A stretch of DNA of 64,000 nt from Candidatus Poribacteria bacterium (GCA_028821605.1 JAPPFM010000056.1:135466-199465), one strand, 5' to 3'. Counted from the first letter of the stretch, positions 8,455-33,453 are shown. Program-made: numbers and translations. The notes: generated from the letters alone by a model not told the origin.

Positions 8455-9099
8455 GTGAAGGAAAAACGTATGTCATCTATTGCAGCCCGAACCTACCTAA
8501 CCCCAGAAGAATATATCGTTGCCGAACGCAAGGCGACACTCAAAAGCGAATATCTGAGCGGCGAGATCGTCGCAATGTCGGGGGCAAGTGATACACATAA
8601 TCTTATCACGATGAATACGTCAAATGCCCTTTACAATCAATTGGCAGACCGAGGATGCAGAGTCTACGCCAGCGATATGCGCGTCGGAATTAGCGCAGGA
8701 GTTTCCTACTTCTATCTGGATATTGCCGTTACTTGTGATAAACCCCGCTTCGAGGATGACGTTTTCGATACACGCATCAATCCACAGGTTATTATTGAAG
8801 TGCTTTCTGATTCAACCTTAGGCTATGATCAAGGCGAAAAATTCATACGCTATCGGCGACTGGAATCACTTCAAGAATACATCCTTATTTCACAAGATCA
8901 GGTTCAAGTCGATCACTATCTCCGTCAAGGCAAACAATGGGTGCTTACTGAATTCAGCGCACTTGAGGATGTGTTACGGCTTGTTTCAATTGGTGCAGAA
9001 CTCCCCTTGCATCAGGTTTACAGATTCATCGATCTGGAAACCGATGATGCCCTTCAAACCACCCATACCGTCTCAAAAAGGGACTCTATTTCATGCTGA
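8455..9099 (+). CDS. Uma2 family (DUF820) putative restriction-endonuclease-like protein
   Basis: Uma2 hallmarks: YLTPEEYIVAERKA...SEYLSGEIVAMSGASDTHN, CRVYASDMRV, YFYLDIAV, PQVIIEVLSDST. Confidence 0.75.
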   Translation: MKEKRMSSIAARTYLTPEEYIVAERKATLKSEYLSGEIVAMSGASDTHNLITMNTSNALYNQLADRGCRVYASDMRVGISAGVSYFYLDIAVTCDKPRFEDDVFDTRINPQVIIEVLSDSTLGYDQGEKFIRYRRLESLQEYILISQDQVQVDHYLRQGKQWVLTEFSALEDVLRLVSIGAELPLHQVYRFIDLETDDALQTTHTVSKRDSISC

Positions 9100-11141: not shown

Positions 11142-11248
11142 CCTTTGCAAAAAGATTGACTTATGCAATTTTTTTAGGTATACTTAACAGATACCCGAGT
11201 GACATACACTTGTTTTTTCTATCACTTTGTGGAAAAGGAGATGTTCTG

Positions 11249-11992
11249 ATGGAAACGCACCCCAATGCACGCCACATCCCTTACGCTCCCACAGAAACTG
11301 CCGACCTATACCCTGAATCGGATGGAAAACCTATGGCTGAGACGGATATGCACGCAGTGGCTATCATCGATTTACGGCAACGTTTTGACGGCTTCTTCGC
11401 GGATAACCCGGATACTTATGTATCGGGGACTCTCATGATGTATGATATAGAGGGCCCCAGCCGCACAGCCGTCTCACCCGATATCCTCGTCTCTTTCGGC
11501 ATAGGCAAGAAACTCCGCCGCACCTATAAGGTGTGGGAAGAGGGAAAGCCGCCAGACTTCGTGATGGAGTTTTCGAGCAAAGGAACGTTTCAAAATGACT
11601 TAGGGCATAAAAAGGCACATTACGCGTCAATGGGAATACCGGAGTATTTTCTCTGCGATATAGATAGACGCTATCTGCCCACGCCGCTGATGGGGTTTCG
11701 CCTCAAAGGTGAGACTTATGAGCGGATACCCGAGAACGTAGATGGTAGTATTCCTTCTGTGACGTTAGGCGTATCGTTCCATCTGTTGGATGAGGGGTTA
11801 GCCGTTTATGCGGAAGCGATGGAACACTGGCTGCAAACGCCTGCAGAGGCAGCAGAGGCAGCAGAGCAGCGTGCGGAACAAGAAGCCGCCGCACACGCGC
11901 GTGAAGCCGCCGCACGCGCCGAAGCGGAAGCGGAAGTCTCGCGCCTGCGCGAGGAGCTCGAGCATCTCAAAGCGCGCTTGTCAGATGACTAA
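11249..11992 (+). CDS. Uma2 family (DUF820) protein with C-terminal Ala/Glu-rich coiled-coil tail
   Basis: Starts METHPNARHIPYAPTETADLYPESDGKPMAETDMH with SD aaggag 7 nt upstream; the track ORF start at 11138 lacks an RBS. The C-terminal tail is AEAAEAAEQRAEQEAAAHAREAAARAEAEAEVSRLREELEHLKARL. Confidence 0.75.
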   Translation: METHPNARHIPYAPTETADLYPESDGKPMAETDMHAVAIIDLRQRFDGFFADNPDTYVSGTLMMYDIEGPSRTAVSPDILVSFGIGKKLRRTYKVWEEGKPPDFVMEFSSKGTFQNDLGHKKAHYASMGIPEYFLCDIDRRYLPTPLMGFRLKGETYERIPENVDGSIPSVTLGVSFHLLDEGLAVYAEAMEHWLQTPAEAAEAAEQRAEQEAAAHAREAAARAEAEAEVSRLREELEHLKARLSDD

Positions 11993-13386: not shown

Positions 13387-14139
13387 ATGGGTATCACCGA
13401 CGCGCAAAAGAAGCAATTGGACGAACAGGGGTGCATCGTCATTCCAGACGTGCTTTCCGACGAGGAGATTGAGGTCTATAGAGCCGATATTCTCAGGTTG
13501 GCAGAAGAGGAGAAGCAGAACGGGTTGGCGCGTCAACATACCGACGGGCGTGGACAGCATGTCCGTTGGTTGGTGAACAAGGGACAGATGTATGAGAAAC
13601 TCGTTGCCAGACCCAAAGTGATGCCCTTCTTTGAGCACCTCCTTGGTCCCGATTATACGTTGAGCACGCTTACCTCGAACATTATTGATCCGGGCGCACC
13701 AGATGGTGGCTACCACGTTGATAGCGTGTTAGGGTCTATGCCGGAGCCGCTGCCCAGTTTCCCACTGGTCGCCAACAGCCTCTGGCTGCTCGACGATTTC
13801 ACACCGGAGAACGGTGGTACACGTCACGTCCCCGGTATCCATCTTCAGCGAATTAAACCGCCCCCAGGCACGACGCACCACCCCGATGAGGTCCGACTCT
13901 CTGCCCCGAAAGGTTCCGTATTCCTGTTCAACGGTGCGATCTGGCATTCTGCGGGTGCCAACAAAACTGATCGGCAGCGCATCGCGTTGATCTGTTTCTG
14001 TTGCCGTTCTTTTATCAAACCGATGTTTGACTTCGTGCATCATCTCAACCCGGAAGTCGTCGAGCGCGCCACCCCAACCATGCGCCGAATCTACGGGTTT
14101 GATTCCCAACCTCAACCCCCAGATCAACCCACGCGGTAA
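13387..14139 (+). CDS. phytanoyl-CoA dioxygenase (PhyH) family Fe(II)/2-oxoglutarate oxygenase
   Basis: Facial-triad context GGYHVDS ... AIWHSAGAN, with an arginine in KTDRQRIAL. Confidence 0.75.
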   Translation: MGITDAQKKQLDEQGCIVIPDVLSDEEIEVYRADILRLAEEEKQNGLARQHTDGRGQHVRWLVNKGQMYEKLVARPKVMPFFEHLLGPDYTLSTLTSNIIDPGAPDGGYHVDSVLGSMPEPLPSFPLVANSLWLLDDFTPENGGTRHVPGIHLQRIKPPPGTTHHPDEVRLSAPKGSVFLFNGAIWHSAGANKTDRQRIALICFCCRSFIKPMFDFVHHLNPEVVERATPTMRRIYGFDSQPQPPDQPTR

Positions 14140-15266: not shown

Positions 15267-18224
15267 ATGCCAAACCGACGCGAAACAACAATCACAAATG
15301 AATTGGTGAACATCTTACGAAACATGCGCCACGGATGGGAGCTCGAAACGGAAGTCAACGCTTTCATCCGAGGCAATAGCGAACTTGATGCCATTGTCAT
15401 TGAACACGGTAGAGAACCCGTCGGGATTGAAGCAAAATTCGCAACCACCACCAATGCCAGAAATTTGATTGAACAGGCAGAAACAAGGCTTGTTCTGGAA
15501 CTTGAAACGGAATATCATGTCGTTGGAAAAACGCTCAATAACGTCATGGCAATCCTGTACCCTGACCGTTTTAAGACGATGCAGGGAAAGGATATCAACC
15601 CACACCTACGCGCTGCGGATGACCTACAATACAAACTCGTCAATACAGTCGGTAATACCGTAGGACACTTCCCAGAAAATGGATGGGCGGAAGGCACTGT
15701 AGGCGACATCGCAAACGCGCTCCACGTTGGCGCAATGCCGACCTCTCAACTTGAAGAGGCAGCGGAAGAGATGGAGAAAAGTATCAACAAGGCAGCTTAC
15801 CTTCTTGAAGATGCTATCGTTGATCATCCTGCCATCGCCAAGAAAATTGAGACGATTCTGCACCAAGAGGTTTCCTCTAAAACGGAAGATAACACAGAAG
15901 AAAAACCGAATGTCCAGACACTCCGCATGGCAGCATTGATTATCACCGATGCTTTTGTCTTCCAAAGTTCCCTTGCCGGTAAAGCAGAGATGGAATCTGT
16001 TCGCTCACTCCGACAACTCCTACCGATAATTGATTATGCTGATGTTATTGAGGACTGGAACACGATTCTCAAGGTTAATTATCGCCCAATCTTTGAGGAT
16101 GCCCGAAACCTCGTTGAGGCACTCGCTACGGATGACAGACTTGTCAAATATATCTTAAAACTCCTCTGTGAGGCTGCAAAAGACCTTGTTGATACCGGTA
16201 TTGCCCAGATTCACGAACTCGCGGGTATTGTGTTCCAAAAACTCATCACCGACAGGAAATACGTCAAGGCGAACTATACGCTTCCCGAAAGCGCGGTGCT
16301 GCTCTCCACCCTTGTGATGCCTGAACTGCCGAAGGGTAAACTCCCGAAAGTGGCAGACTTCGCTTGCGGAACAGGGGCACTCCTCAACGGTGTCTATCAA
16401 CGTATTCTGTCTCTGTATGAGCAATCGGGCGGCAACGGTAAAGACATCCATCAGCGAATGTTAGAGAAGCACATCGGTGGTGTAGATATTATGCCGAATG
16501 CGACACACCTCACCGCTGCTGCGCTTGCGAGTACGTATGCAGGTGTCAAAATCGGCGGCACGCAAATAGTTACTGCCCCTTACGGTGTAATCGATACTGG
16601 CGGCTACGCGATCGGCTCATTGGAATTGCTTGATGATATAAAACTATTTGACACAGAGGCAGAGCAGATAGGCGGTGAGGAAAATACCGTCGTTAAACTC
16701 CAACAGACATTCCAACACGGTGATATTGATATTGTCATACAAAATCCTCCCTTCACAAGGCCGGGATCGGATAGCAATACCGAGGTGCCAAAATCTACTT
16801 TCCAAGGCAGTGATCGACCCAAAGAAGATCAGAAGTTGATGCAGGCCACGCTGAAATCTAAAAATACAAGAGTAACTGATGGCGCTAACGGCTTCGTTTC
16901 TGCTTTCGTAGACCTTGCTGACAAAAAACTGAGGAACGGTGGTACAATGGGTTTCATTTTGCCACTGACAGTGTTGAGATCTCCGACTACGCAAGAACTG
17001 CGCGATATGTGGGCAAACGAATACCACAACGTAGTCGTGATAACCATGGCGCAGGCAAAAGCAGAAGACTGCACATTCTCTGCAGACACAACTATGGCAG
17101 AATGTATCATTGTCGCAACGAAAGGCATAGATGAAAACACTGGACGTGGGAAGTTTATCTGTCTTGCTGATAAACCACATAGTTCTCTTGAATCCGTTGA
17201 AATAGCAAATCGGGTTAATAGAAGCGACGAAGCACGAAGACTTGAAGATGCCCCTAACGGCGGTGATACTATTAACGTTGGAAACACAAATAACGGTCTA
17301 ATGTTGGATTGCCCAATCAAAGAAGGTGTTCCGTGGATCGCAACACGAGCAAGATCCGTGGCATTACTACAGATGGCAAACAAGCTGACAATTGGGAAAC
17401 TGCACTTTCCGATGTCAAGAGAGACTTTACCGATTCACATTTGCCAAGTACAAGATATTGCAAAGGTGGGTTCAGCAGATTCTTATCGGGAAAAAGATGG
17501 CCCGTTTATTATGGTTGAGGATTATGAGCCAAATAGTGATGGTTATGACGCATTGTGGAGAGTTGATGCTCCTTTACAGCGTGCTATGATTGCCGCACCG
17601 GATTCTACTGCGATACCACGTTCAAATGACAATGCTATGGTCAAGCGGATTTTAGACTGTTTCAGCAGAACTCACTATCATATTAATCTGAGATTTACCT
17701 CAAATTCGATTATTTCTTCCTTGACAGAAAAGCCCTCCATCGGTGTACGTTCAATGATTAACGTTTTACTCAATGACCAGCGTCACGAAATTGCTTGGAC
17801 GGTGTGGTGCAACTCAAGTTTAGGTTTGTTTTGTCACTGGGCACACAGCAGTAAACAACAGATGGGACGTGGCACCCTACGTCAACAAACATTAGAGACA
17901 CTGCCTACGCTGGATGTCCGTCAACTCTCCGATGAGGCGTTAGCAAACGCTGAAAAGGTGTTTGAACGGTTGAAATATAAACGTATGCTGCCTTTCAATG
18001 AGTGCGATCATGACCCCGTACGCAAAGAATTAGACTGCTGTCTACTAACAGAGGTGTTGGGAATTACGAGCGATAACGTGCTTGAATCCATGCAGACACT
18101 CCGCGAGATGCTCTGTGCTGAACCGAGTATTCACGGTGGGAAACAGTCTAAGTGCGACCTTGATACCGAGTTGGCGATGCTTAAGAAGAAGCGGATTGCT
18201 TTTCCGAGTTGGTATGTTGATTAA
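15267..18224 (+). CDS. MmeI-like single-chain restriction-modification enzyme candidate (Type IIG/IIL): N-terminal PD-ExK nuclease, gamma-class N6-adenine MTase, C-terminal TRD
   Basis: Order of motifs: D41...E55-A-K57 (ELDAIVIEHGREPVGIEAKF), then MTase motif I DFACGTGALL, motif IV NPPF, and GGTMGFILP, followed by about 380 aa of presumed target-recognition domain. The 985-aa length and domain order match MmeI-family enzymes. Confidence 0.65.
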   Translation: MPNRRETTITNELVNILRNMRHGWELETEVNAFIRGNSELDAIVIEHGREPVGIEAKFATTTNARNLIEQAETRLVLELETEYHVVGKTLNNVMAILYPDRFKTMQGKDINPHLRAADDLQYKLVNTVGNTVGHFPENGWAEGTVGDIANALHVGAMPTSQLEEAAEEMEKSINKAAYLLEDAIVDHPAIAKKIETILHQEVSSKTEDNTEEKPNVQTLRMAALIITDAFVFQSSLAGKAEMESVRSLRQLLPIIDYADVIEDWNTILKVNYRPIFEDARNLVEALATDDRLVKYILKLLCEAAKDLVDTGIAQIHELAGIVFQKLITDRKYVKANYTLPESAVLLSTLVMPELPKGKLPKVADFACGTGALLNGVYQRILSLYEQSGGNGKDIHQRMLEKHIGGVDIMPNATHLTAAALASTYAGVKIGGTQIVTAPYGVIDTGGYAIGSLELLDDIKLFDTEAEQIGGEENTVVKLQQTFQHGDIDIVIQNPPFTRPGSDSNTEVPKSTFQGSDRPKEDQKLMQATLKSKNTRVTDGANGFVSAFVDLADKKLRNGGTMGFILPLTVLRSPTTQELRDMWANEYHNVVVITMAQAKAEDCTFSADTTMAECIIVATKGIDENTGRGKFICLADKPHSSLESVEIANRVNRSDEARRLEDAPNGGDTINVGNTNNGLMLDCPIKEGVPWIATRARSVALLQMANKLTIGKLHFPMSRETLPIHICQVQDIAKVGSADSYREKDGPFIMVEDYEPNSDGYDALWRVDAPLQRAMIAAPDSTAIPRSNDNAMVKRILDCFSRTHYHINLRFTSNSIISSLTEKPSIGVRSMINVLLNDQRHEIAWTVWCNSSLGLFCHWAHSSKQQMGRGTLRQQTLETLPTLDVRQLSDEALANAEKVFERLKYKRMLPFNECDHDPVRKELDCCLLTEVLGITSDNVLESMQTLREMLCAEPSIHGGKQSKCDLDTELAMLKKKRIAFPSWYVD

Positions 18225-18260
18225 TTTAAACTACCTGCAGGAAATCCGGAGAAATAAATT

Positions 18261-19067
18261 ATGCCAAACAAACGGTATCAAGAATTACTATTCTCATCTC
18301 AGAAAAAACTGGATATTTCTGCTGAGCAGATCAGAAAATTAATCCCTACCTCAGGTGAAATAGGTACACTAATTGAAGAAATGTTCAGGTCCTATCTGGC
18401 AGAAGTATTACCTGAAAAAATAGGGATATCAAACGGATTTGTAATGGATTCGGAAGGTGGCGAATCAAGGCAAATGGATATTATCCTATATGATAAAATG
18501 AACACACCTCGCATATTTACCAGTACCGCTGCTCAAGTTTTCCCAGTTGAATCTACATTCGCTTGTGGTGAAATTAAGACTCAACTCAATGCAAGAGAAC
18601 TAAAAGATAGTTTTGAAAAATGCTTAAGTTACAAGAATCTACATCGAAAAGCTTATTTTGATCAAAATGATAGCGATATAAAGTACTTCCATAAATTGTT
18701 CGGAGAAGAAAAAGAACATTGGGAATCAATTTTTTTCACTATTTCTGTTGAGTGTATGACTGGTAGTGGTCTGTTGATGGAATACCAACGTATTATTGAG
18801 GCAGAAAGCCTACCTCTTCATAAGAGAATAGATACAATTTTTTCATTATATAGCACCGATGGGAATAACATAATAGCAAATTGTAGTGAAGAAGGACTCG
18901 ATTTTCTTCCTAATAAGAATGGTCAGTTTCGTGCTATATCAGTGGAAAAATCCTGGGCATTGTTTATCAATCTGTTATTGAGATACATGGTTAACGTACC
19001 CGCGGAACCTATTAATATGATTAAATATGCTGGGAGATCCCTTAGTGATTACGGAATTATAAATTAA
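18261..19067 (+). CDS. AT-rich orphan hypothetical protein with PD-(D/E)xK-like core (QMDIILYD ... ACGEIK)
   Basis: About 35% GC and A/T-ending codons, against about 50% for the window. The putative catalytic strands are D-hydrophobic (MDIILYD) and E-x-K (GEIKTQ). No family could be assigned by eye. Confidence 0.4.
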   Translation: MPNKRYQELLFSSQKKLDISAEQIRKLIPTSGEIGTLIEEMFRSYLAEVLPEKIGISNGFVMDSEGGESRQMDIILYDKMNTPRIFTSTAAQVFPVESTFACGEIKTQLNARELKDSFEKCLSYKNLHRKAYFDQNDSDIKYFHKLFGEEKEHWESIFFTISVECMTGSGLLMEYQRIIEAESLPLHKRIDTIFSLYSTDGNNIIANCSEEGLDFLPNKNGQFRAISVEKSWALFINLLLRYMVNVPAEPINMIKYAGRSLSDYGIIN

Positions 19068-19119
19068 GATTCTGGATCCAGTATATTCTGATCATACTTA
19101 CTATTTTGGAGAGATTGAC

Positions 19120-19518
19120 ATGCAAATTGAAGATTATTTTAACTTTTTGGCAGAAGATGATATTCGCATTAAAGGCACACGTATAGGCATAGAATCTGTC
19201 CTAGACGAGTATATTAACTACAAACAAACAGCAGAGACAATTGCTGAACGTTTTCATACGGTTACACTGGAACAGGTTTATGCTACAATCCTATATTATC
19301 TGCAAAATAAAGAAAAAGTTGGTGCGTATTTGGAGGATTATCTGGAATATTGCCGAAAAGCTCGAGAAGAGCAGGAGAAAAATCCTTCTCCTGGTGTTAT
19401 TCGCCTGCGTGAACTTATAGCAGAAAGGCGAAAAACTTCTGATAATTCACGCCCGGATATCTCGAAAAACAGTTCCGAAAGCACAACACCATCTCCATCC
19501 AAATATGAACGGGAATAA
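19120..19518 (+). CDS. DUF433 domain protein (antitoxin-like partner of DUF5615)
   Basis: IRIKGTRIGIESVLDEY...ERFHTVTLEQVYATILYY matches the DUF433 pattern (GTRI.V..VL....EEI...YP.LT.E.V.AAL.YY). Confidence 0.6.
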   Translation: MQIEDYFNFLAEDDIRIKGTRIGIESVLDEYINYKQTAETIAERFHTVTLEQVYATILYYLQNKEKVGAYLEDYLEYCRKAREEQEKNPSPGVIRLRELIAERRKTSDNSRPDISKNSSESTTPSPSKYERE

Positions 19519-19520
19519 AG

Positions 19521-19880
19521 ATGCGTCGGTATCTGTTGGACGAACATATTCCGCCAATCTACCGCACGCAATTGCTTTATCATGAATCCTCACTAACGGT
19601 CTTGGAGATTGGCGATCAAGGCGTACCTGCAAGAGGAACATCCGACCCGGAAATCCTGCGCTGGTGTGAGCAGAACGACTTCAGTTTGATAACAAACAAT
19701 CGGAAAAGTATGCCCCAACATCTCGCTGACCATCTATCAGCAGGACATCATATACCAGGCATTTTCACGATTAATCTCAATGCGTCAATAGGATTGATAA
19801 TTGAACAATTGATTCTCATTGCTGGAGCATCCGATGAAGATGAATATATTGACCAAATCGTCTTCATCCCACTTAGATGA
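19521..19880 (+). CDS. DUF5615 (Mut7-C/PIN-like) putative toxin
   Basis: LLDEHIPPI...SDPEILRWCEQNDFSLITNN matches the DUF5615 consensus. The start lies 3 nt after the DUF433 stop, so the two form a classic coupled pair. Confidence 0.6.
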   Translation: MRRYLLDEHIPPIYRTQLLYHESSLTVLEIGDQGVPARGTSDPEILRWCEQNDFSLITNNRKSMPQHLADHLSAGHHIPGIFTINLNASIGLIIEQLILIAGASDEDEYIDQIVFIPLR

Positions 19881-19904: not shown

Positions 19905-20693
19905 TTAGTTTCGTTCGATCATTGACTGCTTGAGTGAACCCCACGTTACCGCCAGTTTTCCAATAGGTTCAACCGCCAACGCCAGTGTATGCAATCGCCT
20001 CACGTCGGCATCACTTAACGCCCCCTCAAAAATGGCAACTTCGTCAATAGCACCGGCGTACCAGATACCGCCCAAGTGCTGTGTGTAGGCGATTGTCGGC
20101 TTGTGGGCGGCACCGTAAGCGATACTGATTGGATCGGGTGCCGGAGTCGTCTTTTTTAGTTCACCGTCCAGGTAGATACGGACAGATTTTTTGCTCTCAA
20201 CAACTCCAACAACATGATGCCACTCGCCATCGGCGGGGAACGGCACATAAGCGGAGGGCCAATGCTTTGCCGCGTTTGCTGTGTCCGCACGAATCCAGAT
20301 GCCAACACTATTGTTATCAAGCAGTTGGATGCCGTAGTTGTATTTGTCATAGATCGGATTTCGTGTGCCAAGGGTCGGCTTAATAATCGCCTCCATCGTC
20401 ACAGAAGGGAAGAAGAGGTCCTCACCCATTCGTATCAAATCAACAGCACCGTCAAAATCAAGGGCTTCACTGCGAAACCCATCTATTTGGTTGGGTTTGC
20501 CTGTAATGGTTCCGCCGTTCTTTCCGAAAACATCTTTAACGTCTTTGCCTTGAACGGTGTTTTTGTCAAGGGTCCAAAGTGCCGCAAGCCCCATTTTGAC
20601 TCTTGGATCCTCGGCTACTGCGGATTGAATCACCGTGATAGAAATCACGAAACCGACTAAAAGCAGAGCGGAGAGAGACAATTTCGTTTTCAT
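19905..20693 (-). CDS. secreted LamG/concanavalin-A-like jelly-roll domain protein
   Basis: Signal peptide MKTKLSLSALLLVGFVISITVIQSAVA. LamG-type core (ALDFDGAVDLI...; WHHVVGVVESKKSVRIYLDGEL). Paralog of the next gene. Confidence 0.65.
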   Translation of the reverse strand: MKTKLSLSALLLVGFVISITVIQSAVAEDPRVKMGLAALWTLDKNTVQGKDVKDVFGKNGGTITGKPNQIDGFRSEALDFDGAVDLIRMGEDLFFPSVTMEAIIKPTLGTRNPIYDKYNYGIQLLDNNSVGIWIRADTANAAKHWPSAYVPFPADGEWHHVVGVVESKKSVRIYLDGELKKTTPAPDPISIAYGAAHKPTIAYTQHLGGIWYAGAIDEVAIFEGALSDADVRRLHTLALAVEPIGKLAVTWGSLKQSMIERN

Positions 20694-20742
20694 TGAAACA
20701 TTCCTCCTTAGATTCTAATTTCCTTCTCTGGAATCTTCAAAG

Positions 20743-21561
20743 TTAGTTCTGTTCAGCCATTGATTGTTTTATCCTGCCCCATGTTACAGTGAGTTTACCT
20801 GACGCTTCAACTGACAATGCATCCCGAAGTTTCATCGTGATGTCTTGGATCTCATTTTCAGTCAACGCCTGACTGAAAATTGCCACATCATCAAGCACTC
20901 CTGCCCAATAATCGCCTCTTGGCGCGCCCCAGCGTCCGATTCTTATCGGTTCTGTATTGTGGTCGGGCGGAATATCGGTCGCAGTTTCGCCCTCCATCTC
21001 GCCGTCTATATACGCCCGAAGCACCTTGCCATCGTATGTCGCAGCGACGTGATGCCATTTACCGTCCGCAGCGACTGTTGTGCTAAAGGCAGTCTTCCAA
21101 TTGGCACCCGTCGTGTAGTTCACGCCCAACAATTTTGTATCACCAGCAATAAAGACACCGTAATTTCTCGGTCTCCCAGCAATAGGCTCTTTTCCGAGCA
21201 CGGTTTGCCACTTACCGTTCGGATTCGTTTTGACCCATGCTGATATCGTGTATTCCGTGAGATTGAAAATATCATCGTGTCGGATTTCCACGATATTACC
21301 GTTTCCATCGAAATCGAGGGCTCTTCCCGTCTTGCCCGGAACCCGTTTCGCGCCCATAATATCGCCATCATGCCCGTTCCCTGAAGCATCCTCTGCCGTA
21401 TCGCCTCCGTTCTCGTCAAAAAGCCATGCGGCAAGGAGCGCATCTTCCAATACATTTGCTACGGATATGCTGGTCGTACACAGTAGCCCAATCAGAGTTA
21501 TTAATATCCCTACAAGTGATTTCTGAACAGCCATCATACGCTCCTTTTCCAGCAACATCAA
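20743..21561 (-). CDS. secreted LamG/concanavalin-A-like jelly-roll domain protein (paralog)
   Basis: Signal-like TM LVGILITLIGLLCTTSISVA. Core motifs ALDFDGNGNIVEI...YTISAWVK...WHHVAATYDGKVLRAYIDGE. The ATG overlaps the upstream PhyH stop (ATGA). Confidence 0.65.
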   Translation of the reverse strand: MMLLEKERMMAVQKSLVGILITLIGLLCTTSISVANVLEDALLAAWLFDENGGDTAEDASGNGHDGDIMGAKRVPGKTGRALDFDGNGNIVEIRHDDIFNLTEYTISAWVKTNPNGKWQTVLGKEPIAGRPRNYGVFIAGDTKLLGVNYTTGANWKTAFSTTVAADGKWHHVAATYDGKVLRAYIDGEMEGETATDIPPDHNTEPIRIGRWGAPRGDYWAGVLDDVAIFSQALTENEIQDITMKLRDALSVEASGKLTVTWGRIKQSMAEQN

Positions 21562-22421
21562 TTGGACTCGGAAACAGGCAGCACATCGCGTTCGACTTCG
21601 TGGACCTTGTCTGGAAAGGTTTTACCACGAATCCATACGACGGGTTGCCTTGTCCTACTATTCGGTGCAGCAGGATGTGCCCAGTCTGCTTGGGCACTGA
21701 GGTAGTGGATAACATAACTCCGACGAAACCGTAGACTATGATTGTCCATGCTCTTATGCAGGAGATGACTATGGAACCAGATCACAGCGCCGGGTGGTAC
21801 TTCTACCGGAATACCGTCTTCATCGCGTGCACCGCGCGCCAACTTGAACTCGCGTTGTTGTGAACCCTCAAGATCGTCATGCTCAAAAATATCCCATTTA
21901 TGGCTGCCGGGGATAACATAGAGACAACCGTTTTCGCGATCTGCCGCGTCAATGGCTGTCCACGTTCCAACAGTCGTCTCGGTATTAAACCGATTGCAGA
22001 AATAGAACTTGTCCTGATGCCATGGGAAACCGAGACCAATCTTCGGTGCCTTCCAGATAAACAGATTATTGATACCGAGGATGTCTGGACCAAGAATGTC
22101 AACAAGTGGATCGGTGAGGCGAGGATCGCGGACGCGGGCAAGGAATTCTGGGCAGTAGCAGCTGGGATGATGAATCTTGTGCATCGCATAAATGCCTTGC
22201 TCCTCCGCTTTCCCATCTCTGACGAGTGCGTTTTGATTGATGTTTGTGGACGGAAATGGACGTTTCCTGTCCACAACGTCTTCAGCGACTTGACGGAGGA
22301 CATCATTCTCTTCAGCGGAAAATACGTTCAACCGAACAACGTAACCCTTCTCGTTCCAGTGTGTCAACTCCTTCGCGCTCAAACCAAAACGCCTGTCTTG
22401 TGGTGTTGCTTCTGTCGGCAT
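21558..22421 (-). CDS. phytanoyl-CoA dioxygenase (PhyH) family oxygenase
   Basis: WHQD ... WFHSHLLHKS motifs. Highly similar, at protein and nucleotide level, to the adjacent upstream paralog. Confidence 0.75.
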   Translation of the reverse strand: MPTEATPQDRRFGLSAKELTHWNEKGYVVRLNVFSAEENDVLRQVAEDVVDRKRPFPSTNINQNALVRDGKAEEQGIYAMHKIHHPSCYCPEFLARVRDPRLTDPLVDILGPDILGINNLFIWKAPKIGLGFPWHQDKFYFCNRFNTETTVGTWTAIDAADRENGCLYVIPGSHKWDIFEHDDLEGSQQREFKLARGARDEDGIPVEVPPGAVIWFHSHLLHKSMDNHSLRFRRSYVIHYLSAQADWAHPAAPNSRTRQPVVWIRGKTFPDKVHEVERDVLPVSESN

Positions 22422-22439
22422 GGCTGTCTCCTGTTAATG

Positions 22440-23294
22440 TCAAGCCGATTCTGGGATTGGTAGAACATCGCGTTCGACTTCGTGAACCTTGTCGGGAAAG
22501 GTCCTACCGCGAATCCACATGACGGCTGAACCTCCCGTAGGTTTAGGCGTTGTCCATTCTGCTTGCGCACTGAGGTAATGAGCAACGAAACTACGGCGGA
22601 ACCGTAGGCTATGATTGTCCATGCTCTTATGCAGAAGGTGGCTGTGAAACCAGATGACTGCCCCCGGTGGCACCTCTACTGGGACACCGTCTTCGTCGCG
22701 GACACCACGTGCCAATTTGAATTCACGTTGTTGTGAACCTTCAAGGTCGTCGTGCTGAAAGATGTCCCATTTATGGCTACCCGGGATAACGTAGAGACAC
22801 CCGTTCTCCCGATCTGCTGGGTCGATAGCCGTCCACGTCCCGACAGTCGTCTTTGTCCTAAACCGAGTGCGGAAATAGAATTTATCTTGATGCCATGGGA
22901 AACCGAGACCAATCTTCGGTGCTTTCCAGATAAACAACGTATTGATACCGAGAATGTCTGGACCGAGAAGGTCAACGATTGGGTCGGTTAGACGCGGATC
23001 GCGCACACGGGCGAGGAATTCTGGGTCGTAGCAGCTCGGAAAATGAATTTTGTGTATGGCGTAGATACCTTGCTGCTCTGCTTTTCCATCTCTAACGAGG
23101 GCATTCTGATCAATATGTTCAGGCGGAAATGGACGTTTCCGGTCAACAATATCTTCCGCAACTTGCCGGAACGCATCGTTTTCTTCAGCGGTGAATACGT
23201 CCAAGCGGACCAGATAACCGTTCTCATTCCAATATGCTAATTCGTCCGCGCTCAAGCCAAAACGCCGATCCTGTAGCGTTGATTCTGTGTTCAT
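22440..23294 (-). CDS. phytanoyl-CoA dioxygenase (PhyH) family oxygenase (tandem paralog)
   Basis: Same motifs as the previous gene, in the same orientation, with an 18-bp spacer. Confidence 0.75.
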   Translation of the reverse strand: MNTESTLQDRRFGLSADELAYWNENGYLVRLDVFTAEENDAFRQVAEDIVDRKRPFPPEHIDQNALVRDGKAEQQGIYAIHKIHFPSCYDPEFLARVRDPRLTDPIVDLLGPDILGINTLFIWKAPKIGLGFPWHQDKFYFRTRFRTKTTVGTWTAIDPADRENGCLYVIPGSHKWDIFQHDDLEGSQQREFKLARGVRDEDGVPVEVPPGAVIWFHSHLLHKSMDNHSLRFRRSFVAHYLSAQAEWTTPKPTGGSAVMWIRGRTFPDKVHEVERDVLPIPESA

Positions 23295-23441
23295 TACGAT
23301 CTCCTGTTTCAGAGCATACGGGACAGATGAAAGAATTTCCGAACCGCCGCAAAAATCATAGCATATTTTGGGAAAAAGTCAAGAAAAATCAGAACGGTTC
23401 AATTACCGCGAGGTGCCCTTACACAAAAGCGGATACGTGCG

Positions 23442-25586
23442 TTAAAATTTATATGTGGCTCCGAAAGTGAAATTAAACGGAAACCGCACAGGACTCTTAT
23501 ACTCCGAGGTCTCCAAGTCTATCGGAAATTCTTCGGAATCCGCTTTCTTGAATTCCTCAACAAATTTATCAGGGAAACTGAAATTTATCTCATTTTGGCT
23601 GTTATAGACATTCCAGACTTCAATGAATTCAGTTACAGGAATGCTCCATTGCGTTCTTTCCCGACTCAACCGAAGGTCTAAGCGGTGATATGCTTGAAAC
23701 GCAGTGGGTGCAATCGCGCCTGCGACATCAGAGAGAAGTGGATGCATACCGAGCGTGACGGGATCTTGGATCATTAGGAGTGTGCTTAGAGGAACTGCGG
23801 AAGTACCGCTTACATATTGCCACTTTGCGCCGATACTGACTTTGGGTCTCGGACTATAGTTAGCAACGAGACTGGCAATGTGTGTATTGTCAAAAAGAAA
23901 GGGTTTGTAGAGTGCGTCGGGGGTCTCACGCCGTTCTGCATGGGTGTAGGCGTAAGAGAGCCATCCGAAAAACCTTTCGCTCATACGGTGCCTCAGGAAA
24001 ATCTCTGCCCCGTTTACAAAGCCAGTGCCTTGATTGCGATATGCGGTTGTAATCAGTGTATCCGTGTCATCAAAGAGTGCGTCAACATTGACAGCTCGGG
24101 TGACCAATTTTTCCATGTCTTTGTAATAAAGCGCAAATTTGAGTTGTGTTTGGGGTGAGAGTTCATGCTCTAATTCGACGACATAATGTTCGGTTATGCT
24201 CGATTTCAGGTCTCTGTTCCCATCTGTTTTGAGGACTTGATACGCGAACGGGCTCTGTTCGTATCTACCATAAGCGAATCGGAGGGTAGAGGTCGTCGGG
24301 AGTGTTAAGCTAAGGCTGCCGCGTGGTTGAATTGAGAGTTCCTCCGTCAAATTGAGGTAATCAAACCGCACGCCCAGCGCGACTGATAGAAAGGATAGTG
24401 GATCGTAACGTGCCTGTAGGTATCCCTCTGCCTGCTGGAAGTCGTAATGGAATGCATCGAATTTCTCTTTCCAAACGAGTTTCTCGTCATCAGCACTGAT
24501 ATTCTGTGGGAGAAGGGTGTGTGTCGCACTCTCGGCTGGACTGAAGGCGAAGAGAAATCCTGGTTCAAGTTGAAGTTTCGGAGTGAGCTTGTAGGCGATG
24601 TCTTCGCGAAGGGTATACGTTGGCGTGTTAACTTGGACTGAGTAGATAAATTTCTCACTTGGCGATGCTTCACTTTGGCTCGGATTGCCACCGAAATTGA
24701 TATTGAGGAAGTTATAAGAATGCGTAAGTGAAAGATGGGATATGAGTCTATCGGTGAGATGCGAGCGGAGGTGGATGCCTTCTGCCTGAAACCCGTTCTT
24801 GAAATAGGCGGAAGAACGTGATGTTTCTTCTGATTCGGTGTTAGAAAAGTCGAAATGATCTGTCGCACCTATAGCGTTGACAGTGAGGTGATGTTTTTCG
24901 GTGAGTTGGTATGCAAATTTAAGTTCATAATCCGACCAAGTGGGAAATGTCCAATCAAAGAAAAGTCCGAGTATAAGATTATAGGTTGCGAAACGTCCAG
25001 CGACGGACGCATAACCCTTGTCCCCGATTTTGGTTTCAAAGAACCCATACGGCGATATAAAATTGAAGTCCACGACACCGCCCCTCTGTTTATTCAAACG
25101 TTCGCGCGTTCGGATGTCAATAACCGATTGCGCATCCAATCCGAATTCTGCACCGTAGCCAGCTGCATACACATAAATACTTTCAATACTATCCGAATGT
25201 GTCGTTGAGAAGAGTCCGCCAAAGTGAAACGGATAACTCAGCGGAGTCCTGTCAATATAGATGCGCGTATCGCCGGGTGCACTCCCGCGGATATGGAAGG
25301 CGCGGAGGAAATCGTTGGGGACACCGATTCCTGGCAGTGTCGTGATGGCTCTGAGTGCATCACTTCCTGCACTGATCTGGACGAGTTCGCTGCCTCGCAT
25401 TTCTTTACGGCTGATCGTTGGGTGAAGGCGTTGTCCTTCCACAACCACTGTTTCAAGTTGGACACCTGTTCCAACGGACTGTTCGGTGCTTTCCGGTGTA
25501 TCCTCTTGAGCAGGGTTCGTCTCGGCAAACACAGAGAACGGCATCATGATCCCAATAGATAGGAGGAAAAATAAGCAAGATTTCAT
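23442..25586 (-). CDS. TonB-dependent receptor-like outer-membrane beta-barrel protein
   Basis: Signal peptide MKSCLFFLLSIGIMMPFSVFA. Plug-like region VVVEGQRL...LPGIGVPNDFLRAFHIRGSAPGD. C-terminal aromatic terminus ...FGATYKF. The track ORF start at 25667 was trimmed to the signal-peptide Met. Confidence 0.65.
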   Translation of the reverse strand: MKSCLFFLLSIGIMMPFSVFAETNPAQEDTPESTEQSVGTGVQLETVVVEGQRLHPTISRKEMRGSELVQISAGSDALRAITTLPGIGVPNDFLRAFHIRGSAPGDTRIYIDRTPLSYPFHFGGLFSTTHSDSIESIYVYAAGYGAEFGLDAQSVIDIRTRERLNKQRGGVVDFNFISPYGFFETKIGDKGYASVAGRFATYNLILGLFFDWTFPTWSDYELKFAYQLTEKHHLTVNAIGATDHFDFSNTESEETSRSSAYFKNGFQAEGIHLRSHLTDRLISHLSLTHSYNFLNINFGGNPSQSEASPSEKFIYSVQVNTPTYTLREDIAYKLTPKLQLEPGFLFAFSPAESATHTLLPQNISADDEKLVWKEKFDAFHYDFQQAEGYLQARYDPLSFLSVALGVRFDYLNLTEELSIQPRGSLSLTLPTTSTLRFAYGRYEQSPFAYQVLKTDGNRDLKSSITEHYVVELEHELSPQTQLKFALYYKDMEKLVTRAVNVDALFDDTDTLITTAYRNQGTGFVNGAEIFLRHRMSERFFGWLSYAYTHAERRETPDALYKPFLFDNTHIASLVANYSPRPKVSIGAKWQYVSGTSAVPLSTLLMIQDPVTLGMHPLLSDVAGAIAPTAFQAYHRLDLRLSRERTQWSIPVTEFIEVWNVYNSQNEINFSFPDKFVEEFKKADSEEFPIDLETSEYKSPVRFPFNFTFGATYKF

Positions 25587-25728
25587 AGGTGAGTTTCGAC
25601 TTCCTTTAGGATAGGTTGTGAACGGTGTAAACAGAATGAGATACTTGAAAAACGTCAATCTCAGCATGCTGAATAGCGTGCTTATCGCCTATGCAGCCAC
25701 ACAAGCGTTTGCGAACAACGCTGAAACC

Positions 25729-27288
25729 TTACGGTTTCTCAAAAATCGTCTCGTCTAACGTGCTGTCAATCTCTGTTTTTGTAATGGTGTAATTGACCGT
25801 TAGCGCACCGTCCCCAATAGAGATTTCATAGGAATTGGGCAACATTACACCTTCATAATCCGTATAATCGGCGTAGTGAAGGACCGCGATAGCATTTTTG
25901 ACGTTTAGATCTGTATAGGTAGTCTTCGCCCCGACGAGTAGGTTAGAAGCTTTATCGATATAGAATACATCTTCCGTGTCAATAACTCGAATCACGGAGC
26001 ATTCCTTACCTCGGAACAGTTCATCTTCAATTTGTTGAAATACACTGCTACCAAGTTCTTCGTAGATTGCCTGCAATGGATCTATATAGGTTGTGCTTTT
26101 GGCACGCCCATATTCTGTTTCTGGCAGGATAGTTGGACTATTTCCCATAACGGATTTCCAACCGCCTTCATCATTCCAGACACTGGTTTCACTGAAGAGT
26201 TCACCGAAGTCCTGCTGGTTATACGATTTTTTTCCAACGACTGCTGCTATTTCAACGCGACCTGATTCGTTTACAGGTTGCCCATTCCACTGCGTTAATT
26301 GTGCGTCGCCGGAACGTCGGACATTCCGAATTTCTGAGAGCCGCGCGAGACCGCCAATAGCATTAAAGTGTGATTCAAGTATATCGTTGAGTTTCATGCC
26401 TGTACTACTCCTTTTATTACTGCTGTCAATATTTCCAAACTGATTTCGGACATCAGGCTTTGATGTGAGATCAAGAACAATGGGAACGTCAATAAGCTCG
26501 ACAGTCATCTCGGATGTAGCATCAAAACTGTAAGGCCGCTGGAAACGCGCCAAGTATTGGTTGCTGATGCCGAGCATCATCACAACCAGAATAAGAGTTG
26601 AAGTCGCAATTGCCCACGGCACTACTGGTGGGTTTCCGCCAGTAGGAGATAAGGGTTTGATCCGCGGAATTTCTCGCATGATGTTTTCGGTTAAATTGGG
26701 AGACAGTTGGAAACTGCTCAGTGCCTCGCGAATCATCGGTTCGTGCTTTTTTAAGCGTTGCAGGGCGCGGCGGACACGCATCCGAACTGTATCGGCGGAC
26801 ATCCCTAAAAACGCGCCTATCTCCTCATAAGTCATTTCGCCGAAGTAGTAGAGCGTGACGACAGTGCGATCGCTTTCCTTCAACTTCGCCAATAAGTTTT
26901 TGACCAATTCGCGTTTGGTTTCCGCTGCACTTTCCGCTTGCTTTGTAGCTACGTAACTGGAGTAAGAAGTTCCGTCTGCTATTGCCATATCTATTTCCTC
27001 CACGGATTGCGTTTGGATCCGTTTCTTGCGAAGCCACGCGAGGCAGCAACGGTTCGTAATAACGTAAAGCCATCCCGGAAACTGACTTGGATTTTTCAGC
27101 GTTGCCAATTTTCGATAGACCTGTAGGAATGTTTCCTGCGTAATATCTTCAGCGATATGGAAATCCCCTATTTTTCGCCATGCAAGCGCGTGAACCCGCT
27201 TCTGGTACTTTCTAACCAAACACGCAAAAGCAGCATCGTCACCTTCAAGGATACGTTGAATTAGTTCAATATTGTCATTTCTCATCAA
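25729..27288 (-). CDS. ECF sigma-70 factor fused to a transmembrane anti-sigma-like C-terminal extracytoplasmic domain (LolA/DUF4367-like)
   Basis: Sigma region 2 (HIAEDITQETFLQVYRKL) and region 4 (YEEIGAFLGMSADTVRMRVRRALQRL), then a TM helix VVPWAIATSTLILVVMMLGI and about 280 aa of extracytoplasmic domain. Confidence 0.7.
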   Translation of the reverse strand: MMRNDNIELIQRILEGDDAAFACLVRKYQKRVHALAWRKIGDFHIAEDITQETFLQVYRKLATLKNPSQFPGWLYVITNRCCLAWLRKKRIQTQSVEEIDMAIADGTSYSSYVATKQAESAAETKRELVKNLLAKLKESDRTVVTLYYFGEMTYEEIGAFLGMSADTVRMRVRRALQRLKKHEPMIREALSSFQLSPNLTENIMREIPRIKPLSPTGGNPPVVPWAIATSTLILVVMMLGISNQYLARFQRPYSFDATSEMTVELIDVPIVLDLTSKPDVRNQFGNIDSSNKRSSTGMKLNDILESHFNAIGGLARLSEIRNVRRSGDAQLTQWNGQPVNESGRVEIAAVVGKKSYNQQDFGELFSETSVWNDEGGWKSVMGNSPTILPETEYGRAKSTTYIDPLQAIYEELGSSVFQQIEDELFRGKECSVIRVIDTEDVFYIDKASNLLVGAKTTYTDLNVKNAIAVLHYADYTDYEGVMLPNSYEISIGDGALTVNYTITKTEIDSTLDETIFEKP

Positions 27289-30731: not shown

Positions 30732-32186
30732 ATGACAGGATTTGAGGAATACAACACTGATGGATTTTATGACGAGATGTTCGCGCCAGATGGGAGTGCC
30801 CGTCCTGCTGCCCAGATGTTGGCAGAGCGGATTGAGAGTTTTCCTGAAGGCGAACTCACGCGTCGCCAAATTGCCGCTGAATATGCGTTGCTCCGAATGG
30901 GCATCACGTTCAACGTCTACGCGGACGAGCAGGGTGTCGAAAAAATCTTTCCGTTCGATCTCATTCCACGAATTATTGATGCCAGTGAATGGGAATGGAT
31001 AGAACGTGGACTCAAACAGCGCATCCAAGCGCTGAACCTATTCATTGACGACGTTTACCACGACCAAAAAATTCTTAAAGACGGTATCGTCCCGGCAGAT
31101 GTGGTGCTTTCATCGGAAAGATACCTACAACCCTGCATCGGTTTAGACCCGCCGCGCGGGATCTGGTGCCATATCACTGGCACAGATTTAGTTCGCGATG
31201 GCGATGGACAAGTTTATGTATTGGAAGATAATCTCGGTTGTCCATCTGGTGTCTCTTATGTCGTGGAAAACCGGCAGTTAATGAAGCGCACCTTTCCGCA
31301 ACTCTTTGGGATGTCGCAAATTCAACCGGTCGAAGATTATCCGAGTCAACTGCTGAATACGCTCCGGTACCTCGTAACCGACAAAATCTTATCTCCTGAA
31401 GTTGCGGTACTAACCCCTGGCGTTTATAACTCCGCATACTTTGAGCACTCCTTTCTGGCGCAGCAGATGGGGGTTGAATTGGTTGAGGGGCGCGATCTCG
31501 TCGTAATGGACGGGTTTGTGCACGCGCGAACGACGAAGGGTTTTGAGCGGGTTGATGTTATCTACCGCCGCATTAACGACGATTTCCTTGACCCGAAAGC
31601 GTTCAAACCGGAATCAATGCTCGGCGTTCCGGGATTGATGGAGGTTTACAAAGCCGGACGTGTCGCTTTGGTTAATGCCCCTGGCACCTGTGTCGCTGAC
31701 GACAAAGTCGTCTGTGCTTTCGTCCCTGAGATCATCAAGTATTATCTCGGTGAAGACATTATCGTCCCAAACGTTCCGACCTATATGTGTTGGAAAGATA
31801 GCGATCAGAAATATGTGCTGGAGCATCTCGACGAACTCGTTGTGAAAGAAGCCAACCAGTCTGGCGGCTATGGAATGCTGATCGGTCCCCACGCAACTAA
31901 AGCAGAACACGAGGAGTTTGCCCGCCGAATCAAAGATAATCCGCGTAATTACATCGCGCAACCGACACTCTCGCTTTCACGTGTGCCGGTGCTTATTGAC
32001 GATCATTTTGAGGGACGGCACGTTGATTTGCGTCCGTTTATCCTTTACGGTGAAGAGATTTACGTCCTCCCAGGTGGATTGACACGGGTCGCACTCAAAA
32101 AGGGTTCGCTTGTCGTCAACTCGTCACAGGGTGGGGGTAGCAAGGATACGTGGGTCTTATCGGGGCCGTCAGGAAAAGGCGCGTAG
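30732..32186 (+). CDS. circularly permuted type-2 ATP-grasp protein (CP_ATPgrasp_2)
   Basis: The N-terminus FEEYNTDGFYDEMFAPDGSARP...GITFNVY and the overall pattern are typical of this family. SD ggggagg upstream. Confidence 0.8.
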   Translation: MTGFEEYNTDGFYDEMFAPDGSARPAAQMLAERIESFPEGELTRRQIAAEYALLRMGITFNVYADEQGVEKIFPFDLIPRIIDASEWEWIERGLKQRIQALNLFIDDVYHDQKILKDGIVPADVVLSSERYLQPCIGLDPPRGIWCHITGTDLVRDGDGQVYVLEDNLGCPSGVSYVVENRQLMKRTFPQLFGMSQIQPVEDYPSQLLNTLRYLVTDKILSPEVAVLTPGVYNSAYFEHSFLAQQMGVELVEGRDLVVMDGFVHARTTKGFERVDVIYRRINDDFLDPKAFKPESMLGVPGLMEVYKAGRVALVNAPGTCVADDKVVCAFVPEIIKYYLGEDIIVPNVPTYMCWKDSDQKYVLEHLDELVVKEANQSGGYGMLIGPHATKAEHEEFARRIKDNPRNYIAQPTLSLSRVPVLIDDHFEGRHVDLRPFILYGEEIYVLPGGLTRVALKKGSLVVNSSQGGGSKDTWVLSGPSGKGA

Positions 32187-32282
32187 AGGCGAGATTCCTT
32201 CGCCTCTACACAAAAGCGCGAAAAGCCAAACAACGTGCGGCTTGGATTCTCTAACGGATCGGTGTTCATAAAATCTATCTGA

Positions 32283-32306
32283 CTGACCGCAAGGAAAATT
32301 AAAAAT
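32283..32306 (+). promoter_or_regulatory. copy 1 of conserved leader motif (C)TGACCGCAAGGAAAATTAAAAAT immediately 5' of the alpha-E gene
   Basis: Shares about 22-27 nt with the leaders at 33418-33450 and about 40683-40711. Confidence 0.45.
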
Positions 32307-33293: not shown

Positions 33294-33417
33294 GTTATTT
33301 AAAGAGAAGGGGCGGGAAACCTGTCCCCTACGGAGCATCTAATTCTCCTCTTAAACGGAAAGCAAAGCATCGCGCCGGGACGGATATACGGAGTGGGATC
33401 TTATCAGTAAAATTCCG

Positions 33418-33450
33418 CTAACCGAACCGCAAGGAAATATTAAAAAAACA
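33418..33450 (+). promoter_or_regulatory. copy 2 of conserved leader motif CTAACCGAACCGCAAGGAAATATTAAAAAAA
   Basis: Immediately 5' of the long transglutaminase gene. Confidence 0.45.
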
Positions 33451-33453
33451 GAT

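Follow-up and report, generated by a model that had tools for sequence, protein, structure and literature searches.

We analysed a 64,000-nucleotide stretch of DNA from Candidatus Poribacteria (GCA_028821605.1, JAPPFM010000056.1:135466-199465; hereafter the window), which carries at positions 19905-23294 a group of four closely spaced genes for two PhyH-family dioxygenases and two predicted secreted, lectin-like LamG proteins with a common C-terminal tag. An earlier examination of the bare sequence (the sequence-only reading) had listed these as four consecutive minus-strand genes in the order PhyH-PhyH-LamG-LamG, and both the open reading frames (ORFs) and the Pfam domain matches bear this arrangement out:

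22440-23294, minus strand: PhyH-A, 284 aa, an Fe(II)/2-oxoglutarate (2OG) dioxygenase without signal peptide
21558-22421, minus strand: PhyH-B, 287 aa, a paralogue of PhyH-A with identical catalytic motifs
20743-21537, minus strand: LamG1, 264 aa, composed of a signal peptide, a lectin-like beta-sandwich, a helix and the C-terminal tag
19905-20693, minus strand: LamG2, 262 aa, a distant paralogue of LamG1 with equal architecture

Along PhyH-A, PhyH-B, LamG1 and LamG2 the intergenic gaps measure 18, 20 and 49 nt, and an AGGAG-type ribosome-binding site lies ahead of each of the four genes, including PhyH-B, whose start follows the PhyH-A stop by 18 nt with AGGAG in front. The stop and start codons had been described as overlapping or closely spaced; the close spacing stands and the overlap does not, as the sole overlap rests on the choice of a TTG at 21561 as the mechanically assigned LamG1 start, which gives an ORF of 20743-21561 that runs into PhyH-B. 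An NCBI protein that is 100% identical to LamG1 ('LamG domain-containing protein [Candidatus Poribacteria bacterium]', P0001, 264 aa) has the ATG at 21537 as its first codon, and the PhyH-B/LamG1 gap is therefore given as 20 nt. Upstream of the first gene we find one candidate transcription signal:

23355..23382, minus strand: sigma-70-like promoter candidate (TTGACT, 16 nt, TG-TATGAT) within the 147-nt gap upstream of PhyH-A

This site is the best match of the scanned region (10/12, with an extended -10 element), as a match to the consensus only, and shuffled sequence gives at least as many sigma-70-like matches overall as the region does. None of the three intergenic gaps holds a terminator-like site, and the only such matches on this strand fall inside coding sequence. 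Because a promoter-like site precedes PhyH-A and the gaps are free of terminator-like sites, co-transcription of the PhyH and LamG genes is plausible.

The arrangement recurs in the orthologous loci of four other genomes, referred to as L001, L129, L130 and L131, which read as follows:

L129: PhyH, PhyH, LamG, Pec_lyase, LamG
L130: PhyH, PhyH, LamG, Pec_lyase, LamG
L131: PhyH, PhyH, LamG
L001: PhyH, LamG, small opposite-strand ORF, LamG

PhyH(-PhyH)-LamG1 is kept in all four (4/4), and LamG2 in all but L131, with orthologues of 258-262 aa in L001, L129 and L130. The window arrangement persists down to 75% LamG1 identity despite the insertion of an insertion sequence (IS) element, of Pec_lyase and of genes for a putative TonB-dependent transporter (TBDT) and an extracytoplasmic function (ECF) sigma factor, and the locus is a conserved four-gene operon of Candidatus Poribacteria. 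The Pec_lyase gene (PF09492), which is missing from the window, lies between LamG1 and LamG2 at 9969-11015 in L129 and at 9848-10894 in L130; the L129 protein has a signal peptide and lacks the C-terminal tail. The presence of this gene inside the orthologous operon points to polysaccharide use. On the right flank, synteny with L001, L130 and L131 extends to genes for a 392-aa PhyH-like protein, an FGE-sulfatase and circularly permuted ATP-grasp proteins; the left flank of L129 differs. In L001, the 397-aa 'gene' that precedes PhyH was set aside as a probably spurious ORF.

Both PhyH proteins match the Pfam PhyH family (PF05721, cut-off 22 bits) over their full length, covering profile positions 1-212 of 213, with E=2.7e-37 and 129.6 bits for PhyH-A and E=5.7e-34 and 118.7 bits for PhyH-B. 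The iron ligands W-H135-Q-D137 and H222 and the 2OG-binding R233 occur in both paralogues and align with those of human PHYH (2a1x), so that the catalytic residues of both proteins are intact as judged from the alignment; since the Asp of the HxD motif is kept, both are predicted to be hydroxylase-type rather than halogenase-type enzymes. By sequence, the nearest solved structure to PhyH-A is human PHYH itself (2a1x, E=2.5e-19), followed by EvdO2 and PHYHD1, with EctD and SyrB2 as further relatives in the PDB, and the annotations of these nearest relatives describe enzymes of small-molecule or carrier-tethered substrates. NCBIfam returned no equivalog-level match for the PhyH proteins, every match lying far below its cut-off. 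PHYHD1 and FJS demethylate 2'-O-methyl nucleosides, as is reported for one Poribacteria enzyme (PMC12709175); we considered the same role for PhyH-A and PhyH-B and rejected it, the identity to the Poribacteria enzyme being 28-31% over 119-165 aligned residues.

The two PhyH genes had been taken for near-identical in large stretches and hence for a recent tandem duplication, and neither description survives closer comparison. Between 21558-22421 and 22440-23294 the nucleotide identity is 78.9% (82.7% at the amino acid level), no identical stretch exceeds 35 nt, identity at third codon positions drops to 57% and the codon differences stand at about two synonymous to one non-synonymous. PhyH-A resembles the only PhyH of the L001 locus (85.9% nucleotide and 91.5% amino acid identity) more than it resembles PhyH-B, and three other genomes (L129, L130 and L131, with LamG1 82-87% identical) share the same pair of a PhyH of about 281 aa and a PhyH of 287 aa. 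On these sequence relationships we therefore regard the duplication as old and retained. The PhyH-A subfamily is strongly conserved, at 67% identity or more across the best 120 clusters, which is unusual in comparison with other poribacterial PhyHs.

LamG1 and LamG2 both match Pfam Laminin_G_3 (E=5e-30 and 105.1 bits; E=2.2e-16 and 60.8 bits; cut-off 27.6) and, at 31% identity to each other with the C-terminal tail as the best-conserved stretch, are distant paralogues. Each starts with a Sec type I signal peptide, recognised by a positive N-terminus, a hydrophobic core and a small-x-small site, and neither PhyH protein has one:

21457..21537, minus strand: LamG1 signal peptide, residues 1-27, predicted cleavage between SVA and N
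20613..20693, minus strand: LamG2 signal peptide, residues 1-27, predicted cleavage between AVA and E

The signal peptides were judged by eye and with a simple hydrophobic-core heuristic, and the cleavage sites are estimates; within these bounds the check agrees with the proposal that the PhyH enzymes are presumably cytoplasmic and the LamG proteins exported. Neither LamG protein fits the lipobox pattern [LVI][ASTVI][GAS]C, as G-L-L precedes Cys20 in LamG1 and the LamG2 signal peptide is free of cysteine, so that LamG2 is not a lipoprotein. The AlphaFold2 model of LamG1 (mean pLDDT 90, the predicted local distance difference test) comprises a beta-sandwich at residues 34-221 and a helix at 227-243; its linker and tail have pLDDT values of 56-79, which are low, so that the tail is not confidently packed on the domain. 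Foldseek searches of the PDB with this model (E ~1e-11) return non-catalytic lectin-like and carbohydrate-binding domains, among them the clostridial neurotoxin Hc-N domain, the C-terminal lectin domain of trans-sialidase and domain 4 of the GH43 arabinanase AbnA. On the strength of these modelled similarities, LamG1 and LamG2 are read as probable binding modules rather than enzymes.

The C-terminal motif said to be shared by the two LamG proteins is indeed present in both, as KLTVTWGRIKQSMAEQN and KLAVTWGSLKQSMIERN, and a six-frame scan of the window found only these two examples:

20746..20811, minus strand: LamG1 tag, V243...N264, VEASGKLTVTWGRIKQSMAEQN
19908..19973, minus strand: LamG2 tag, V241...N262, VEPIGKLAVTWGSLKQSMIERN

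In an alignment of 40 homologues that reaches down to 28% identity, W253 never varies, and V243, K248, L249 and K257 hardly do. We back-translated the commonest tail form, GKL[TA]TTW[GA]xIK, and used it as a pattern to scan one genome per species from 185,579 species. The sample examined comprises at least 120 stretches (910 kb), and the taxonomic and pairing counts given below describe this sample among the matches listed. These stretches hold 179 tail-bearing ORFs, 112 of LamG type and 67 from other families.

The sample allowed us to ask whether PhyH and LamG genes pair elsewhere, and they do: in other Poribacteria genomes, 20 of the 112 LamG-tail ORFs have a PhyH gene within 300 bp, as against 1 of the 67 non-LamG tail ORFs (Fisher P=4e-4). 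More than 1.9% of poribacterial genes encode PhyH proteins, a great abundance that has already been published (PMC3909097), and two neighbours at this published frequency of 1.9% give an expectation of 3.8%, which the observed count exceeds about fivefold at the ORF level (binomial P=9e-9). Counted by orthogroup (at least 55% identity), pairing occurs in 7 of 46 LamG-tail orthogroups, about four times the expectation (P=0.002). The PhyH neighbours are nearly always on the same strand, with gaps typically of 7-22 bp, and two large orthogroups keep the pairing in 6/9 and 8/9 members. The LamG-adjacent PhyH proteins fall into at least eight clusters below 45% identity, do not exceed 29% identity with PhyH-A and all lack signal peptides. 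Among the same-strand neighbours of LamG-tail genes (n=110), other LamG-tail genes come to 39, PhyH genes, the commonest non-self family, to 18 and GFO/IDH/MocA dehydrogenases to 12. The pairing of PhyH with LamG is thus real and recurrent, appearing in several lineages of each family that diverged deeply, and it is not obligate; we found no reports of recurrent operonic pairing of PhyH with exported LamG proteins in the literature. Genes related to carbohydrates are plentiful around such pairs, and the families include GFO/IDH/MocA, sulfatase, FGE-sulfatase, BNR sialidase-like, UxuA and secreted pectate-lyase-family proteins; the GFO/IDH/MocA dehydrogenases near the pairs are cytoplasmic and have no Tat signal.

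The same survey shows the tag to be a lineage-wide modular signal, carried by many unrelated exported proteins well beyond the two paralogues of the window. From 178 non-identical ORFs its consensus is A-V(91%)-E-P(65%)-x-G-K-L-T/A-T-T-W-A/G-x-I-K, a core of about 16 residues with the variants (T/V) after T/A and (I/L) before the final K; as V, E and P lie outside the search pattern, their conservation is independent evidence. The motif is followed by 0-7 residues in 171/178 ORFs, mostly by 1-3 that are rich in Arg and Lys, and all examples lie within 12 residues of the stop; LamG1 and LamG2 each have seven residues between motif and stop. A signal-peptide-like N-terminus is found in 156/168 full-length tail ORFs versus 1/48 PhyH ORFs, and the tail ORFs without one are mostly incomplete at locus ends. 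The tail-bearing folds comprise Laminin_G_3, 3-keto-disaccharide hydrolase/DUF1080, HmuY, CBM9, LTD, DUF3108-like proteins and PD40-like repeats, together with a 277-aa family and several more that have no Pfam match. The Pfam-less family of about 277 aa ('GGPLxE..LLxDPxPN...IYPDKSxDQxSFF...') ranks second in size among the tail-bearing families (36 members, 16 loci), and many of the genes in the tandem arrays of 3-5 tail-bearing paralogues that fill the 8-kb loci L024, L085, L051, L081 and L128 belong to it.

By label, the 120 stretches listed divide into 111 from Poribacteria, 6 from an 'uncultured bacterium', 2 from metagenome-assembled genomes (MAGs) binned to other phyla and 1 chance match. 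One of the other-phylum MAGs contributes a fragmentary ORF on a 3.7-kb contig and the other a 215-aa tail-bearing ORF clipped at the start of its stretch; the chance match is internal to a 921-aa ORF of a Lachnospiraceae MAG. Many of the tag-bearing genomes come from sponges and corals, and non-sponge MAGs are represented too, for example by SpSt-970, a hot-spring-type assembly. Searches of isolated tails against Pfam and NCBIfam at E<=10 gave no meaningful match and no sorting-signal model, literature searches recovered neither the tag motif strings nor anything relevant on Poribacteria and laminin G or sorting, and clustering of all neighbours of the tail genes revealed no conserved candidate for a sorting enzyme or receptor.

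Two simpler identities for the tag were considered and rejected. That it might be the last strand of the LamG sandwich is ruled out by the unrelated folds that bear it and by its position in the model as a low-confidence appendage after the helix. That it might be the start of a C-terminal domain (CTD) of the type IX secretion system (T9SS), as in the form '...TTWGxIK...QNYPNPFNPETWIPY', fails because NPFNPETW-type CTDs are preceded by other sequence; the tag and such CTDs never occur together in the window and 128 loci. LamG1 and LamG2 have no match to a T9SS-type CTD (Por_Secre_tail or FlgD_ig-type, 70-100 residues), their tails being about 16-22 residues long. Large secreted proteins that do end in a T9SS-type CTD ('LLANYPNPFNPETWIPYQL...') are encoded elsewhere in the window, at 20-2431 and 55596-61487 on the plus strand; the former matches FlgD_ig and Por_Secre_tail, and LDL-receptor/NHL beta-propellers and dockerin repeats lie upstream. 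The T9SS-type CTD is a second C-terminal tag system of the same genome, distinct from the TTWGxIK tail.

An indication of what the tag might do comes from a heme/iron-uptake operon at 1073-4867 of locus L089, which encodes PepSY_TM, a TonB receptor, two HmuY paralogues, a periplasmic binding protein, a FecCD permease and an ABC ATPase. The HmuY of Bacteroidota is a lipoprotein on the surface of the outer membrane and works for the TonB receptor HmuR. One L089 paralogue has a lipobox-like Cys and a long acidic linker and is without the tail; the other has no Cys and ends in ...VDPKGKLTTTWAAIKS (tail form GKLTTTWAAIKS). Because the two paralogues are complementary in this respect, one with the Cys and no tail and the other with the tail and no Cys, the analogy suggests that the tail may be an alternative means of retaining a small binding protein at the envelope.

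Turning to the surroundings of the operon, its immediate upstream neighbours in the window are:

23442..25667, minus strand: divergent TonB-dependent-transporter-like outer-membrane protein with a signal peptide followed by a TonB-box-like 'LETVVVEG'
25729..27288, minus strand: ECF sigma factor fused to a transmembrane (TM) helix and an extracytoplasmic domain of about 270 aa
27481-28659, plus strand: divergent PhyH-like protein of 392 aa with an internal insertion, a divergently transcribed and conserved syntenic neighbour

The first of these reaches 22.2 bits against the Plug family (cut-off 23.9) and gives weak NCBIfam TonB-receptor or barrel matches in its C-terminal half. The second matches Sigma70_r2 and Sigma70_r4 and scores 94 bits against the NCBIfam sigma70-ECF model (cut-off 42.9), with the TM helix at about residues 231-252. 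This ECF/TonB pair is inserted between the FGE-sulfatase and 392-aa genes and the PhyH operon; it is absent from L001, L129, L130 and L131 and belongs to this lineage only. A single conserved system of ECF sigma factor, TonB receptor, PhyH and LamG was accordingly rejected, its first two components being missing from 4/4 orthologous loci. The 392-aa protein matches PhyH in Pfam with E=0.0038, below the cut-off, and with E=3e-12 when compared with a PhyH profile built without it. Together with the three window genes that pass Pfam (PhyH-A, PhyH-B and 13387-14139), it brings the PhyH-family genes found in the window to four; a fifth, counted in the sequence-only reading, was not found.

Directly downstream of LamG2, an islet at 15267-19880 on the plus strand resembles defence or toxin-antitoxin genes and includes an Eco57I-like 985-aa methylase/restriction fusion, DUF6602 and a DUF433/DUF5615 pair; the GC content falls to 0.39 at 18-20 kb, and DUF5615 and Eco57I also flank the operon of L129. 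At 30732-40508, on the plus strand, genes for circularly permuted ATP-grasp, Alpha-E and transglutaminase/DUF2126 proteins occur as a set twice in succession; in the second set, ATP-grasp and Alpha-E form a single fusion protein of 914 aa. Also on the plus strand, at 8455-11992, a 682-aa AMP-binding (acyl-CoA-synthetase-like) gene stands between two genes for Uma2-family putative endonucleases, an arrangement repeated in L130.

We tentatively interpret the operon, with a confidence slightly short of even, as a nutrient-scavenging module in which envelope-retained LamG binding proteins work alongside cytoplasmic PhyH oxygenases. In such a module the LamG proteins would be exported by Sec, kept at the cell envelope by the tag and there bind a glycan or another polymer derived from the host or from particles, and in the cytoplasm the PhyH enzymes would hydroxylate a small molecule that comes from this nutrient, or remove one of its substituents oxidatively. 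LamG and PhyH proteins would be linked as parts of one pathway or regulon rather than as a physical complex. Sugar-active enzymes of the PhyH family exist, EvdO2 being the second-best structural relative by sequence. Co-transcription, envelope retention, the LamG ligand and the PhyH substrate are what we infer here; of the earlier interpretation, the parts on the operon and on the predicted protein locations are borne out, as is a recurring pairing, which was proposed there as a check; its recent duplication falls away, and its substrate capture with hydroxylation is carried forward in the conditional form just given. For the tag, we give an even chance that it is a Poribacteria-specific C-terminal sorting or anchoring signal, recognised by an envelope component or enzyme and holding small single-domain binding proteins at the surface or outer membrane. 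The set so held would include the lectin-like, CBM9, DUF1080 and HmuY types, the tag would take over the job of the N-terminal lipid anchors of Bacteroidota, and the PhyH-LamG operons would be one of several kinds of nutrient-acquisition cassette that use it.

Several observations weigh against the nutrient-scavenging interpretation. A large majority of the LamG-tail orthogroups (39/46) have no PhyH neighbour, and PhyH-A orthologues with 70-74% identity occur without LamG in three unrelated contexts (L133-L135, L136; 6001-6855), one of them Memo-PhyH-SH3_3 in a MAG labelled Planctomycetota and another AP_endonuc_2-PhyH-GFO_IDH_MocA with gaps of about 15 bp. It follows that PhyH-A does not need LamG and, from both facts together, that the pair is not a tight two-component machine. 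The operon has no conserved transporter, and the putative TonB-type receptor is confined to this window; weak promoter-like matches (9/12) precede LamG1 and LamG2; and the families related to carbohydrates are in any case abundant in these genomes, which may be all that their presence as neighbours reflects. The only biochemically tested Poribacteria PhyH (PMC12709175), at 28-31% identity, identifies no substrate here. The location and fate of the tag are inferred throughout, and the HmuY argument for anchoring, which is the main one, is drawn from a locus outside the window. Some of these points would also suit the absence of any functional link, with two hugely expanded families brought together by local duplication and shuffling and passively inherited in close relatives. 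Such an account would be helped by a PhyH share above 1.9% of poribacterial genes (PMC3909097), by the many unpaired orthogroups and the LamG-free contexts of PhyH-A orthologues, and by a gene order that varies, PhyH being upstream in some groups and downstream in others. It is hard to reconcile with adjacency at about five times (ORFs) or four times (orthogroups) the expected level, with the near absence of pairing from non-LamG tail genes of the same genomes (1/67), with the involvement of eight or more PhyH clusters below 45% identity, with same-strand gaps of 7-22 bp kept across species in orthogroups where 6/9 and 8/9 members are paired, and with the survival of the window arrangement to 75% LamG1 identity despite insertions; we consider it unlikely, while granting it appreciable weight.

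An alternative that we regard as rather improbable casts the LamG-tail proteins as host-interaction or adhesion factors whose eukaryote-like LamG domains bind the sponge matrix, with the PhyH proteins as merely co-regulated housekeeping or detoxification enzymes. The match of the LamG fold to toxin receptor-binding domains and to the trans-sialidase lectin domain, the origin of many genomes from sponges and corals and the frequent occurrence of tail genes in tandem arrays of 2-5 paralogues, typical of surface-protein families, agree with that idea, but MAGs from outside sponges, SpSt-970 among them, have the tag and the family too, the tag is carried by HmuY in a heme-uptake operon and by CBM9 and DUF1080 proteins, and the orthologous operon contains a gene for a secreted protein of the pectate-lyase family. 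Finally, the PhyH enzymes might modify the LamG proteins themselves, for instance by hydroxylating a residue of the domain or tag before export. The genes are tightly coupled, protein-hydroxylating 2OG oxygenases exist and some Lys, Thr and Trp residues of the tag never vary; yet just 1 of the 67 non-LamG tag proteins has a PhyH neighbour, most LamG-tail genes have none, PhyH-A orthologues occur without LamG, the nearest PDB relatives (PHYH, EvdO2, PHYHD1, EctD and SyrB2) are annotated as acting on small-molecule or carrier-tethered substrates, and the modified proteins would have to be Sec preproteins, which are exported unfolded. This modification scheme is in our view very improbable.

Poribacteria are dominant, still uncultured sponge symbionts, and why about 2% of their genes encode PhyH proteins has been a standing question since 2014. 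The finding that a subset of these enzymes is repeatedly wired to exported lectin-like proteins offers a handle for choosing test substrates. The tag adds to the interest of the locus: it marks a whole class of exported Poribacteria proteins, has the appearance of a so far undescribed signal for sorting or anchoring that is specific to the phylum, and provides a practical marker for poribacterial contigs in metagenomes. If it does act in sorting or anchoring, the surface-exposed binding proteome of Poribacteria would become definable from sequence alone, further envelope machinery would be implied and a very short type would be added to the known C-terminal sorting signals.

Compared with known systems, PhyH-A and PhyH-B resemble the characterised members of their family (human PHYH, PHYHD1, the FJS demethylases, EvdO2, ectoine hydroxylase and PhnY) in their full-length Pfam match, their HxD...H and Arg residues and their predicted cytoplasmic location, and differ from them in having no equivalog-level match to a characterised enzyme and in being paired with exported LamG proteins. 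With the polysaccharide-utilisation loci (PULs) of Bacteroidota (SusC/SusD, SusE/F, ECF sigma/anti-sigma) the operon shares the co-location of exported proteins of carbohydrate-binding type with intracellular catabolic genes, a putative TonB-type receptor, weakly matched, and an ECF sigma factor in the window and, in the operon of its relatives, a secreted polysaccharide-lyase-family gene. Unlike these loci, it has no SusD family match among the window proteins scanned, its receptor and sigma factor are not conserved with it, its LamG binders are predicted non-lipoproteins with a C-terminal tag, and its enzymes are 2OG dioxygenases rather than glycoside hydrolases. By itself the operon is a modest finding, which adds a new member to a class of gene clusters with a loose resemblance to PULs. 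The tag, for its part, is strictly C-terminal, modular, lineage-restricted and often present on many paralogues per genome, as are the T9SS CTD and the PEP-CTERM/exosortase, LPXTG/sortase and GlyGly-CTERM/rhombosortase signals; it differs from all of these in its length of about 16 residues, without a TM helix or a folded domain of about 80 residues, and from the exosortase, sortase and rhombosortase signals in that its motif is followed by 0-12 polar or basic residues rather than by a hydrophobic stretch. A further parallel is the HmuY/HmuR system of Porphyromonas and other Bacteroidota, with which the L089 operon of Poribacteria shares a TonB receptor, HmuY homologues and a heme/iron ABC importer, and from which it departs in that one of its HmuY paralogues bears the tag in place of an N-terminal lipid anchor.

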